A stretch of DNA of 15,851 bases from a virus (Duplodnaviria; Heunggongvirae; Uroviricota; Caudoviricetes): positions 1 to 15,851 of IMG/VR virus record IMGVR_UViG_2684622669_000012; one strand, given 5' to 3'. The notes beneath the pieces are model-generated. The model had not been told where the DNA came from and made no database searches. It was given only the letters and a program-made list of their open reading frames with translations. A program made the translations under genes and the position numbers. Below, one piece after another: positions 8,022-14,365 of this stretch (positions are counted from its first letter, which is position 1; every line of letters begins with the position of its first letter).

Positions 8022-8634
8022 AGGTGCACTATAATTCCACCCGTTCTGGTTTTCAATAGCTACATTCAACATTTTCTCTACCTTTCATCACCTGAGTGAA
8101 CTTTGTTGATGCGGTGCCTGGTGCCTCCAGGTGACGTTAACCAGTTAACAATTAACGCCGGATGACTCACCCATAACACTCATGTTTTTAACTGTTCCGC
8201 GTGCGCTTAGCCGCATTCACCGCATCACAAAATTCACTTTAAAAAGGGCGGCAGAGCAGTCACGGAGTAAAACTGATACCGCCAAACGCCACCAGAAAAT
8301 TGATAACAGAGGGCGTTGTAGCGGGGTTGTCACTTAAGCGTATGGTCAACCTGACAACCCGGTGTCCTCAACGGGGAAGGAATAACCCAGCCATACTTAC
8401 CGCCGCGCCATTTCGCGGAGTGCCACAACCGGAAGCGCACGGTCGAATTAAATTTAACGACACCGTACAGAGAGACCAATTTCGCCGTGCGCTTTCGCGT
8501 TATGCCCTGGCTTTTCAGGGATATATCCTTTCAGTAAACTGTCAGTACCGGATTCTTATCCGTGTCCGGCGCACGACCACACGTGACAGCGTGTTGGTCT
8601 CCATTTTTAACCCAGAACCTCAATGGAGGATAAA

Positions 8635-8844
8635 ATGCCAAACAAAAAAAGAAATCCGCTTATTGAAAAAAAGATTGAATGCCTGGTAAATCAACTCAGG
8701 CAATCAGGGTTATTAAAAACTCATTCAGAGTTGAGGCTCACAGAATCAGCATTCGACGATAAATTAAATAATGTCCTTTATAATGGCATTATTGATTTTA
8801 ATCGTTCTGTTGGTCGCCGCGGCCCTGCTGGTGTTTCCTTATAA
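8635..8844 (+). CDS. Hypothetical protein (69 aa), convergent with the 216-aa gene
   Basis: ATG at 8635 with GGAGG 5 nt upstream; Lys-rich N-terminus (MPNKKRNPLIEKKIE...); stop abuts the stop of the opposite-strand gene with no spacer. Occupies the position that sieB holds in Rac (memory). Confidence 0.45.
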   Translation: MPNKKRNPLIEKKIECLVNQLRQSGLLKTHSELRLTESAFDDKLNNVLYNGIIDFNRSVGRRGPAGVSL

Positions 8845-9495
8845 TTACCAGTCAATCCAGAGCGGACCGTGTTCAGCGTAAATATAACTGTACACATCCA
8901 GATTATATTTGTGGTCTGTTAAGAACAGGCCGCAAATATATGCCGAAGCTTCCAGGGCAGCGGCTCTGTTACTGAATAACCATGTAGCAACATTCCAGCG
9001 TTTTTCTGCATCCCAGTCTTTCTCAAGGCCTGATACCATGAAGAAACCGTTAGTGTTGCCATCAAATAATTCTGTTTCCAGATTTTTAAGCAATGCCTGA
9101 TGGACTCTTGCCAGGTATTCCGCCGGAATTTCGCCACGAATTCTGATGAGATTGTCATAAACAAACATGTTCCCCGCATATGGCGATTCTTCTTTCTTGT
9201 TTTTTAAACCAGCATCATGAGCAAACTGATCAATTTCTTCTTCCGTTGGTTTCGTATTGATGTTTTGCGCTGTCGTTTCTGCAATTTTATTTGCCACACT
9301 CTCTGAGTCGTGTTTATTTACAGACGCACAGAAATACAATCCGGTAAACGCATCGCGCACATTACGAGCCATATTATCAGTGTCTTTTTTCGTTACCGAT
9401 TCCAATGCAAGTTCGTTCAGACGATGACGAAGTGTGTGTGCTGCAATCTCCTGGATTGAAGTAGGTAAATCTTTAAATTCCATCGTCAACCTCAT
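8845..9495 (-). CDS. Hypothetical protein (216 aa) of unknown function; accessory (moron) candidate
   Basis: Long clean ORF; start ATG overlaps the TGA stop of the upstream 50-aa gene (TGATG); alternative start 4 codons in has a GAGG RBS. No motif I can assign; soluble, acidic, no obvious TM segment. Confidence 0.7.
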   Translation of the reverse strand: MRLTMEFKDLPTSIQEIAAHTLRHRLNELALESVTKKDTDNMARNVRDAFTGLYFCASVNKHDSESVANKIAETTAQNINTKPTEEEIDQFAHDAGLKNKKEESPYAGNMFVYDNLIRIRGEIPAEYLARVHQALLKNLETELFDGNTNGFFMVSGLEKDWDAEKRWNVATWLFSNRAAALEASAYICGLFLTDHKYNLDVYSYIYAEHGPLWIDW

Positions 9496-9647
9496 CAGTC
9501 AGAGTTTCTTGCTAACCAGCGATGCGCGCCAGCTTCGGTTTTAAACGTTTTACTTTTGGTATACGTCATCGCGGTGAACGTGCCGTCCTGGTTGGGAAAC
9601 ACGCCGTACACCAGAGATTCGTTGTTGCCAAGATCGATAGTATCCAT
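9495..9647 (-). CDS. YdaF/YdfA-like small phage protein (50 aa)
   Basis: Below the 60-aa ORF-track cutoff. ATG at 9647 with GAGG 5 nt upstream; product MDTIDLGNNESLVYGVFPNQDGTFTAMTYTKSKTFKTEAGAHRWLARNSD resembles the small proteins encoded just downstream of the repressor in Rac (ydaF) and Qin (ydfA), from memory. Confidence 0.65.
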   Translation of the reverse strand: MDTIDLGNNESLVYGVFPNQDGTFTAMTYTKSKTFKTEAGAHRWLARNSD

Positions 9648-9771
9648 GCTGACCTCATTTCCCCTTAACGCCGGGGGAGCGGAACTAAGACCTGTCGCAC
9701 CGTTGTGCTTTGATGGAATACATTGCTCTCTTTAGGTGAACAAAAGTCAACATGATGAATACGTAAAAAAC

Positions 9772-9794
9772 AAAAAAAACCGCCTTGTGGCGGT
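9772..9794 (-). terminator. Rho-independent terminator downstream of the repressor gene
   Basis: Minus strand reads ACCGCC-acaa-GGCGGT followed by 8 T; lies 22 bp past the repressor stop. Confidence 0.6.
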
Positions 9795-9815
9795 ATGATT
9801 CTGTAAAATAAAGAA

Positions 9816-10205
9816 TTATTTTTGTCGTGTTATTGGGTCGACGTATTCTGAGTAAAATTCAGTCAGTTTTTGGAGTCGCATTTGAAAAGCTGCCAGCATA
9901 TTTCTACGTTCTACAGGTGGCAGGTTTCTGTAAACATCAAGCAGGGCCTTCTCGTCATCATCAAGCGCCTCTCTATTTGTCTCTTCTTTCCCTGTCAGTA
10001 GCCAAGAAAGGGAAACGTTTGTGGCTTCTGCAATTTTGGCTGCGGAATCTTTACTGATTGTTCCTCTTTTTTTCCATGCGTTGACTGATGAACGACCTAC
10101 ACCAGCGATACGCGCTAAATCTGAACCACTTAAATGATGCTGTTGAGAGATCGTATCTAACCTTTCTGCTAGCGGGGTGTCGTATTGCTTTTTTCTCATG
10201 TCCAT
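9816..10205 (-). CDS. Prophage repressor, Cro/C1-type HTH (XRE family), short form without S24 peptidase domain
   Basis: 129 aa; HTH at LSGSDLARIAGVGRSSVNAWKKRG; divergent from the cro-like gene; far too short to include a LexA-like autocleavage domain. Confidence 0.8.
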   Translation of the reverse strand: MDMRKKQYDTPLAERLDTISQQHHLSGSDLARIAGVGRSSVNAWKKRGTISKDSAAKIAEATNVSLSWLLTGKEETNREALDDDEKALLDVYRNLPPVERRNMLAAFQMRLQKLTEFYSEYVDPITRQK

Positions 10206-10308
10206 TTGGCAATTATAACCGTTCAGTGAACACTAACAATTCCTCGAGGTGTTGACTTATGTTCGCTTTAAGTGAACAATTATTGTGGTTAGTTGAACTG
10301 GAGGTTGT
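10206..10308. promoter_or_regulatory. Divergent promoter/operator region (pRM-like leftward, pR-like rightward)
   Basis: Minus strand: TTGTTA - 16 nt - TATAAT ending 6 nt before the repressor ATG, implying a leaderless or near-leaderless mRNA. Plus strand: TTGACT - 17 nt - AACAAT upstream of the cro-like gene. Repeated AGTGAACA motifs at 10236-10248 and 10274-10286, including the palindrome GTTCAGTGAAC. Confidence 0.6.
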
Positions 10309-10584
10309 ATGACAGCATTGGACAAAGCAATAAAGATTGCTGGTGGTATTCGTCCGCTAGGGCGTGCAATAGGGGCTTGGCCATCTCAAATACACAAATG
10401 GGCAAATGAATACAATGGTCGAGTGCCGACGGGAGAACGGGTTCGTCAAATTTATATTGCAACTGGGGTTACTCCTCATGAATTGCGACCAGATTTATAC
10501 CCGAATCCAACTGACGGGTTGCCTGCTGGAGATAAGGCTAACACACCAAATACACCGGAGTTGATTCATGAAAATCAAGCATGA
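10309..10584 (+). CDS. ydaS: Cro-like HTH regulator, YdaS family
   Basis: 91 aa; GGAGG RBS; contains the YdaS-type motif (ERVRQIYIATGVTPHELRPDLYP) as recalled from Rac YdaS; first gene rightward of the operator region. Confidence 0.75.
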   Translation: MTALDKAIKIAGGIRPLGRAIGAWPSQIHKWANEYNGRVPTGERVRQIYIATGVTPHELRPDLYPNPTDGLPAGDKANTPNTPELIHENQA

Positions 10585-13998: not shown

Positions 13999-14209
13999 TT
14001 TCATATTGGCGAGGTAACGGGAGTTAAGTAGAATGGCTGCGGGTGCTTGAGGCTATCTGTCTCAGGCATGAACACCAAAGGCAGATAGAGAAAAGCCCCA
14101 GTTAACATTCGGCGTCCTGCAAGACGCTTAACATTAATCTGAGGCCCAATCTATGTCTCACAAATGTAGGTTAGCCTCTTACGTGCCGAAAGGCAAGGAG
14201 AAGCAGGCT

Positions 14210-14365
14210 ATGAAGCAGCAAAAGGCGATGTTAATCGCCCTGATCGTCATCTGTTTAACCGTCATAGTGACGGCACTGGTAACGAGGAAAGACCTCTGCG
14301 AGGTACGAATCCGAACCGGCCAGACGGAGGTCGCTGTCTTCACAGTTTACGAACCTGAGGAGTAA
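14210..14365 (+). CDS. hokD: Hok/Gef-family type I toxin (membrane peptide)
   Basis: MKQQKAMLIALIVICLTVIVTALVTRKDLCEVRIRTGQTEVAVFTVYEPEE: near-identical to HokD/RelF as I recall it (one A/V difference). AAGGAG RBS; the ORF-track entry adds an in-frame 19-codon upstream extension. Confidence 0.9.
   Translation: MKQQKAMLIALIVICLTVIVTALVTRKDLCEVRIRTGQTEVAVFTVYEPEE

Follow-up and report, generated by a model that had tools for sequence, protein, structure and literature searches.

A probable dicBF-type early operon with a polymorphic promoter-proximal slot in a lambdoid Escherichia coli prophage

Operons of the dicBF type are found in most Escherichia coli genomes, in several copies in enterohaemorrhagic E. 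coli (EHEC), and through their products DicF and DicB they affect cell division, metabolism, the regulation of virulence and sensitivity to phages. The genes that lie between the promoter of such an operon and dicF have, to our knowledge, never been characterised. In phage lambda, the rexAB genes are located between cI and OL/PL and are co-transcribed with cI in the lysogen. Here we examine positions 8845-9771 of a 15,851-nucleotide (nt) stretch of prophage DNA (IMG/VR record IMGVR_UViG_2684622669_000012), referred to as the window, in which a first-pass annotation had seen a self-contained, lysogen-expressed two-gene operon in a rexAB-like slot and a candidate for exclusion or defence cargo. 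The region is likely to be the promoter-proximal part of a repressor-controlled, PL-equivalent early-left operon of the dicBF type. Comparison across related loci shows the product of its second gene, a protein of 212 amino acids (aa), to be one allele of a polymorphic slot.

The closest described system is the dicBF operon of the Qin prophage, arranged as dicA, dicBp-ydfA-ydfB-ydfC-dicF-dicB-ydfD. Its promoter dicBp, termed a PL analogue, is derepressed 22-fold in a dicA deletion (PMC10448788), and dicB rises up to 3,700-fold when DicA drops (PMC3441716). The dicBp transcript is polycistronic, spanning ydfABC-dicF(-dicB-ydfD), and DicF is processed from this RNA (PMC10448788, PMC3441716, PMC5069750). 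A 20-nt inverted repeat, TTGTTAGTCATAACTAACAA, which our repeat search located in the dicA/dicC intergenic region of Qin, is the experimentally defined DicA operator Oc (PMC3441716), and a further operator copy, TGTTAGTCATGGCTAA, sits between the -35 and the -10 of the promoter upstream of ydfA.

Operon type and predicted repression

The window represents the left arm of a lambdoid E. coli prophage whose integration site adjoins mtfA and a tRNA-Ser gene; strain EC12 carries a copy of the region at 99.7% identity. On the minus strand, the repressor gene is followed by a gene of the DUF1391 (YdfA/YdaF) family, a large open reading frame (ORF), DicF and then further genes (Table 1). As in Qin, an operator-bearing promoter comes directly after the repressor gene, a YdfA-like gene is the first of the operon, its leader is conserved and DicF lies downstream. 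Operator and repressor specificity differ, however, the places of ydfB and ydfC are taken by the 212-aa gene and a convergent 69-aa gene, and those of dicB and ydfD by an isrK/C4-Rha/Ash module and kil. The first gene had been described as YdaF-like, encoding 50 aa and having a good ribosome-binding site, and this is borne out by its PF07151 match and by a Shine-Dalgarno (SD) sequence, GAGG, at 9656-9653, 5 nt before the ATG. The product is 94% identical to Qin YdfA and 82% identical to Rac YdaF. From the -35 to the DUF1391 ATG the distance is 103 nt in the window and 106 nt in Qin, and window positions 8102-8575 are 90% identical to the Qin ydfC-dicF-dicB spacer.

The promoter itself, TTGACT-17-AGCAAT, had been recognised in the first-pass annotation; the motif stands, while its coordinates are 9722-9750, 2 nt away from the 9724-9752 first given. 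The GTTCAC half-site noted in its spacer does belong to a repressor-type operator, one present as a full 20-base-pair (bp) copy rather than a half-site. Within the window, the 20-bp pattern TTGTTCACYTAAAGNGARCA occurs only here and in the repressor/cro intergenic region (10259/10260-10279), with no matches in 200 shuffles, and the 31-nt PL-type promoter (-35, operator and -10) is identical to the PR-like promoter at 25 of 31 positions (81%). Copies of the resident operator upstream of the DUF1391 gene are also seen in three other immunity types, namely Qin, EDL933 and E24377A. The repressor consists of helix-turn-helix (HTH) and Phage_CI_repr domains only, with no S24 peptidase domain; it matches the NCBIfam DicA subfamily weakly and DicA itself at ~25% identity over 88 aa, with a non-significant E = 0.037. 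Given the Qin-like layout, the operator-bearing promoter, the YdfA identity and DicF, we regard the flagged region, with reasonable confidence, as the head of a PL-equivalent operon. By analogy with Qin, this operon would probably be switched off in the lysogen.

These observations bear on the view that the two genes form an autonomous moron that, in the manner of rexAB or sieB, is expressed by the lysogen and excludes or defends against other phages, which we consider very unlikely. The region does adjoin the repressor gene, where lambdoid accessory genes cluster (a relBE pair is so placed in E24377A), and the large protein lacks an assigned function. In addition, dicBp-type promoters are weakly and heterogeneously active in lysogens (PMC10448788), and expression of DicB, which an operon of this type encodes, is reported to give protection against some phages (PMC6832061). 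Against this, a full operator copy covers the spacer and -10, the promoter is a near-duplicate of the PR-type one, and the homologous Qin promoter is repressed by DicA (PMC10448788, PMC3441716), all of which is at odds with lysogen-expressed cargo. Both genes follow the PL-equivalent promoter and operator, on the far side from the repressor gene, and are therefore not rexAB-like; the true rexAB-type slot (9751-9815, from the repressor gene to the PL-type promoter) holds only the predicted terminator, a hairpin with a T-run that had been correctly placed directly after the repressor gene. Nor is the operon closed. Its first two genes are closely linked, with an 11-nt gap, and their predicted co-transcription agrees with the earlier view, but DicF, the Rha/Ash ORF, kil, the exonuclease gene and int follow on the same strand, and a terminator scan predicted no terminator-like site between the promoter and DicF. 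PADLOC gave no match for the 212-aa protein, and a defence or exclusion role for it is supported by none of our results.

Other phages place the operon in context. The window genes resemble lambda rexAB in being near the repressor gene and differ in lying beyond the PL-equivalent promoter/operator; Pfam, PHROGs and PADLOC gave no RexA or RexB similarity for the 212-aa protein. The accessory genes of the lambda and P22 PL operons (N, ral, sieB, cIII, kil, gam) are likewise small, non-essential leftward genes behind a repressor-controlled early promoter, with kil and recombination genes further along. Unlike those operons, the window operon begins with the DUF1391 and 212-aa genes, and neither an N-type antiterminator gene nor a nut site was identified where it starts. 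The viable phage mEp460 has the same layout as the window operon. In Rac (racR-ydaG-ydaF/sieB/kilR), a DUF1391 gene also follows an HTH-only repressor, with kil further on, and a convergent sieB overlaps the 3' end of the promoter-proximal genes, a position held in the window by the 69-aa gene; ydaG comes first in Rac, however, which lacks an N-domain/C-domain protein. Rac SieB (162 aa) is unrelated to the 69-aa protein, with blastp similarity at chance level and no SieB match in Pfam or PHROG, and the regions upstream of the two genes can be aligned only in part.

Some further features of this region were observed. In E24377A (locus L002 of our set), the relBE pair (7340-7811) is flanked by the repressor gene on one side and, on the other, by the operator copies that precede the DUF1391 gene, which is a real rexAB-type position. 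A CCCC-N8-GGGG hairpin just before the DUF1391 SD is kept in Qin, Rac and E24377A (L002-L004) and in the window (9661-9677) despite differing upstream promoters and operators. The 50-aa protein has a weak match to PADLOC AbiEi (E = 0.0016, 16 bits, 32 residues), the sole defence-library signal in the region, which we regard as noise. The repressor/cro intergenic region (10206-10308) also holds an 11-bp perfect palindrome, GTTCACTGAAC, inside the spacer of a promoter-like site for the repressor gene (TTGTTA-16-TATAAT, 10239-10212); this may be a site of another type, such as one for the Cro-like protein.

Table 1 Features of the window around the operon head, with coordinates on the 15,851-nt stretch.
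Feature	Position	Strand	Evidence or detail
Prophage repressor, 129 aa, DicA/RacR class	9816-10205	-	Pfam Phage_CI_repr E = 1.7e-12, HTH_3
Intrinsic repressor-gene terminator (predicted)	9794-9779	-	ACCGCCACAAGGCGGT then T-run; stem ACCGCC..GGCGGT
PL-equivalent (dicBp-type) promoter	9722-9750	-	-35 TTGACT 9750-9745, 17-nt spacer, -10 AGCAAT 9727-9722
OL-equivalent operator copy TTGTTCACCTAAAGAGAGCA	9724-9743	-	fills promoter spacer, overlaps -10
Conserved 5' leader	9648-9716	-	alignment with Qin, Rac and E24377A leaders
YdfA/YdaF-family gene (DUF1391), 50 aa	9495-9647	-	PF07151 E = 3.5e-29, 100.6 bits (cut-off 27.3)
Large ORF	8845-9495	-
212-aa gene (phrog_2151; 'Ybl81' in some records)	8845-9483	-	PHROG, start-codon conservation
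N-terminal helical domain of 212-aa protein	9208-9483	-	aa ~1-92
C-terminal alpha/beta domain of 212-aa protein	8848-9195	-	aa ~97-212
Convergent 69-aa gene (phrog_4274)	8635-8844	+	PHROG match, PGAP coding sequence; SD GGAGG 8625-8629
Conserved region upstream of 69-aa gene (putative function)	8535-8634	+	sequence comparison, RNAalifold
-10-like TAAACT	8535-8540	+	hairpin 1 follows after 6 nt; seen in four upstream contexts that differ
Hairpin 1	8546-8571	+	invariant GCCGGA..TCCGGC; two G.U pairs in plus sense
Hairpin 2	8575-8599	+	four lineage-specific stems: ACACG/CGTGT, CTCCAC/GTGGAG, CCCAAC/GTTGGG, TCCCGA/TCGGGA
Anti-SD CTCCAT	8599-8604	+	predicted pairing with ATGGAG 8623-8628 (SD)
DicF small RNA gene	8246-8297	-	Rfam RF00039, 76.4 bits (gathering score 48)
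isrK RNA element	7945-8021	-	Rfam
C4 RNA element	7833-7920	-	Rfam
Rha/Ash-domain ORF	7221-8072	-	Pfam, PHROG; isrK/C4 within or before the ORF
kil	6954-7175	-	Pfam, PHROG
813-aa exonuclease gene, DUF4224 gene, integrase gene	beyond kil	-
PR-equivalent promoter TTGACT-17-AACAAT for cro-like YdaS-family gene	10250-10280	+	promoter scan; holds operator copy 10260-10279
YdaS-type cro-like gene	at 10309	+	right of repressor
YdaT/CII-like gene		+	right of repressor

The slot behind the YdfA-like gene

The second gene of the operon had been described as a 216-aa ORF whose start overlaps the DUF1391 stop codon (TGATG). This overlap is present in the window; it is not conserved, the upstream ATG being gone in several relatives (e.g. 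..gactaacggggttaaagATGGAA..). By contrast, the SD sequence GAGG at 9493-9490 and the ATG at 9483 (start MEFKDLP) are invariant in all relatives compared. The phrog_2151 match (E = 2.5e-143) spans profile positions 1-212 with aa 5-216 of the 216-aa ORF, and PGAP annotates a product of 212 aa after an 11-nt gap. The gene is therefore assigned to 8845-9483.

No family had been recognised for the large protein at first, and our profile and structure searches agree. Pfam, NCBIfam and PADLOC returned no family, so that phrog_2151, of unknown function, is the sole profile match. AlphaFold models reached a predicted local distance difference test (pLDDT) score of 62 with a shallow alignment and 71 with a mixed-domain alignment, and a Foldseek search of the model against BFVD and PDB gave nothing under E = 1e-3. 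Blastp against YdfB, YdfC, YdaG, SieB, DicA and RacR showed no similarity. A profile match to Noc in PDB (E ~ 0.1) was set aside as noise. The protein is acidic, with an isoelectric point (pI) of 5.1, and has no catalytic signature; literature searches on Ybl81, the protein accessions and DUF1391 found nothing useful.

The 212-aa protein is 97% identical to a cluster of 973 members (P0001), and its full-length relatives, at 66-97% identity, come from Escherichia only, plus a few from Salmonella. A HMMER search of 1.84 billion representatives recovered a single full-length cluster at the 50%-identity level together with domain-only relatives, and no full-length copy was found in 50,697 isolated phage records. 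Of the complete E. coli genomes examined (5,426), 600 (~11%) carry the cassette, O157:H7, O145, O111 and O103 strains among them.

The slot was surveyed in 80 IMG/VR loci found by means of the YdfA-like protein. The gene that follows ydfA usually begins with MEFKDLP and has at least eight different endings, giving products of 52/68, 109, 112/119, 122, 124, 129, 133 and 211/212 aa; the alternative content of the slot is ydfB-ydfC, and DicF lies 695-1270 nt further on. The 212-aa protein is one allele of this polymorphic slot, in which a constant N-terminal helical domain is joined to alternative C-terminal parts. The N-domain (residues ~1-60/90) recurs at the N-terminus of many short proteins, among them members of other PHROGs and Stx-phage proteins (42% identity), whereas the C-domain (~97-212) has relatives only in Salmonella prophage proteins, at 31-38% identity, and occurs only in Escherichia and Salmonella.

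Substitution rates also separate the two domains. The ratio of nonsynonymous to synonymous rates (dN/dS) is 0.20-0.27 for the 69-aa gene and 0.21-0.23 for the C-domain, against 0.39-0.78 for the N-domain; judged by these ratios, the 212-aa and 69-aa genes are both under purifying selection. The synonymous rates (dS) of the C-domain and the 69-aa gene match, at 0.34-0.52, while that of the N-domain is 0.12 or ~0.95 in the same comparisons. This mismatch places a recombination junction inside the 212-aa gene and makes the C-domain plus the 69-aa gene the inherited unit. The operon type is already known and both proteins are catalogued without characterisation; what appears to be new is that the promoter-proximal part of a dicBF-type operon is a polymorphic slot with conserved ends, and that the 212-aa gene is a two-domain mosaic.

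The same data make it highly improbable that these ORFs, as relics of a defective prophage, are decaying or without function. It is true that many carriers are defective prophages and that a few alleles are frameshifted or truncated (L178, L232, L161/L203). Even so, dN/dS is 0.2-0.4 in most comparisons (full range 0.2-0.8), both SD and start codon have been kept, 594 of the 5,426 complete genomes have an intact cassette, and distant homologues are conserved in Salmonella. In the broken alleles, the 212-aa gene is reduced to 191 aa, split into 109+109 aa, or has its C-domain cut at 69 aa; L232, at least, retains an intact convergent gene.

The convergent partner and a proposed mechanism

The 69-aa gene, which lies beyond the coordinates first flagged, runs towards the 212-aa gene so that their stop codons abut; it has a strong SD and encodes a soluble, basic product (pI 9.9). 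Every one of the 73 IMG/VR loci found with the 69-aa protein has a C-domain gene tail-to-tail with it, and a search with the C-domain gave 76 assessable loci, 73 of them with the 69-aa gene. Both families share the same narrow Escherichia/Salmonella range; a scan of genome contigs with the 69-aa profile gave no match, probably as a result of one-genome-per-species sampling. Other alleles of the slot are accompanied in a similar way. In six alleles, the opposite strand has an allele-specific convergent ORF headed by the conserved motif GGAGG[AG]T[AG]AAATG, the pairs being 212 with 69 aa, 112/119 with 64, 109 with 91, 133 with 92, 122 with 100 and 52/68 with 61 aa; no convergent ORF was seen for the 124-aa and 129-aa alleles.

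Some 200 nt upstream of the convergent ORFs are conserved and correspond to the Qin spacer downstream of ydfC. Within the element shown in Table 1, the register of hairpin 2 varies between lineages through a 1-nt bulge. In this element, no promoter of the 69-aa gene scored above the scan threshold, and a promoter proposed by the scan at 8607-8636 (+) was ruled out, its -10 overlapping the start codon. The same element occurs in Qin, where there is no convergent gene, and in the Salmonella loci, where DicF is absent; it lies at 2555-2650 (-) in L003, 7040-7150 (-) in L005 and 6803-6915 (-) in L008.

The pair extends to Salmonella prophages (proteins P0143, P0152 and P0177-P0181), where the C-domain is 31-38% identical and the partners, of 64-69 aa, are 44-51% identical to the 69-aa protein. 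As in the window, the two genes are tail-to-tail, the leader hairpins are present and the C-domain gene is the second gene of a repressor-controlled early operon. These prophages differ in having a P2/186-type switch (int-C-cox), with the C-domain gene directly after cox, and another N-terminal region, and Rfam found no DicF in their loci. That the C-domain and its small partner form a conserved convergent pair across two phage switch types also appears to be new. One Salmonella homologue, P0143 (L005/L006/L007, 6001-6861), has a Cro/CI-type HTH (HTH_3, E = 8e-6) between its N-terminal region and the C-domain, which siblings such as P0152 lack; in a tblastn search of isolated phages with P0143, only the HTH part was matched.

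This homologue is one reason to consider the 212-aa protein as a modulator of the lysis-lysogeny decision or of repressor activity, comparable to cIII, anti-repressors or 186 CII. So are the location of the gene, second after the early promoter here and after cox in Salmonella prophages, and the possibility that a dicBF-operon product helps to keep dicBp repressed (PMC10448788). We nevertheless hold such a role to be quite unlikely, as the E. coli protein has no DNA-binding domain, and the slot is highly polymorphic, often containing unrelated short proteins, which would not be expected of a core switch component.

The constancy of the pair raises another explanation, in which the C-domain and the 69-aa protein are cognate interacting partners, an effector and its antagonist, within a polymorphic conflict module (exclusion, abortive infection, addiction or anti-defence). 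Expression of one partner would depend on the repressed early operon; the other would have its own promoter on the opposite strand, with a structured leader as the gate. Near-obligate adjacency (73 of 73 and 73 of 76 loci), persistence of the tail-to-tail arrangement in Salmonella prophages at the identities given above and with another type of switch, a shared host distribution, opposite charges (pI 5.1 and 9.9), purifying selection on both genes with matching dS, at least six slot alleles each with its own convergent ORF behind one conserved SD-ATG motif, and a conserved leader with anti-SD pairing and hairpin stems that differ by lineage would all fit. On the other hand, physical linkage alone could explain the co-inheritance, three C-domain loci have a different convergent gene, the 124-aa and 129-aa alleles have none, the 69-aa gene has no promoter above the scan threshold, and neither protein resembles any known family of toxin, immunity or defence proteins. 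A type II toxin-antitoxin system is not indicated, since the genes are convergent rather than co-directional and no toxin-antitoxin family is matched. On balance we treat the effector-antagonist explanation as possible but rather unlikely. A broader form, in which the head of dicBF-type and related Escherichia/Salmonella early operons is a polymorphic module composed of a gene A (constant N-domain, exchangeable C-domain) and an allele-specific convergent gene B behind an SD-sequestering leader, with cognate products, is offered as a tentative proposal with a similarly low chance of being right. On this view the module would be an undescribed type of phage conflict or regulatory cassette, of which the 212-aa/69-aa pair would be one allele.

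For the dicBF-type early operon that we favour, the following mechanism is proposed. In the lysogen, the 129-aa repressor would bind the 20-bp operator over the spacer and -10 of the 9722-9750 promoter and keep the operon off in most cells. Upon derepression, one long leftward transcript would supply the YdfA-like, 212-aa, DicF, isrK/C4-Rha/Ash, Kil, exonuclease and Int functions. The 212-aa protein may then act as a dispensable early accessory that binds a host or phage partner during induction or infection, as suggested by its position, its timing and its neighbours DicF, Kil and DicB. The 69-aa protein would most likely be its cognate regulator or antagonist, with convergent transcription coupling the two genes.

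Several points weigh against this reading. The -10, AGCAAT, matches TATAAT at three of six positions, too few for a generic promoter scan to have listed the site. Repression in this lysogen is deduced from the DNA and from Qin homology, and in K-12 dicBp is active in stationary phase, upon exposure to urea or heat, and in ~1% of cells (PMC10448788), so that silence in the lysogen would not be absolute. The 548 nt from the 212-aa stop codon to DicF carry no translation on the operon strand, and Rho-dependent termination may occur within this stretch. What is proposed for the function of the 212-aa protein derives from position and analogy. Finally, three C-domain loci have another convergent ORF in place of the 69-aa gene, and the partner is therefore not strictly required. 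In these three loci (L153, L155 and L162, ~3026-3661, -), the C-domain protein ends in WIDWFKG, and the convergent ORF, of up to 211 aa and with CxxC-type cysteine pairs, lies in an AT-rich insert.

In sum, the stretch from the promoter to dicF is a recombining, polymorphic slot, one common allele of which is a conserved orphan pair that is also found in Salmonella prophages with a different switch. Should the pair be an interacting effector/antagonist module, it would represent a new type of cargo for temperate-phage early operons. If it is not, the reading of the region would still be corrected, from lysogen-expressed defence cargo to early genes that are predicted to be repressed.

Downstream genes and the right arm

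Downstream of DicF, the window has no dicB or ydfD and carries instead the Rha/Ash ORF with isrK/C4, followed by kil. The close relatives E24377A, EDL933 and mEp460 have dicB, and the window operon is therefore a variant. A candidate DicB remnant at 8093-8176 was discarded, its translation being nothing DicB-like.

The position that dicB and ydfD hold in the relatives is thus occupied by an isrK/C4 antisense-RNA module with an anti-repressor-like Rha/Ash ORF. This combination resembles P1 immI and Gifsy-1 isrK-anrP; here it is placed inside a PL-type operon, in a prophage whose repressor is without a peptidase domain. In the right arm of the prophage, a sok antitoxin RNA (14041-14215, +; 116.9 bits) points to a hok/sok-type module, and the EC12 annotation at that position is hokD.

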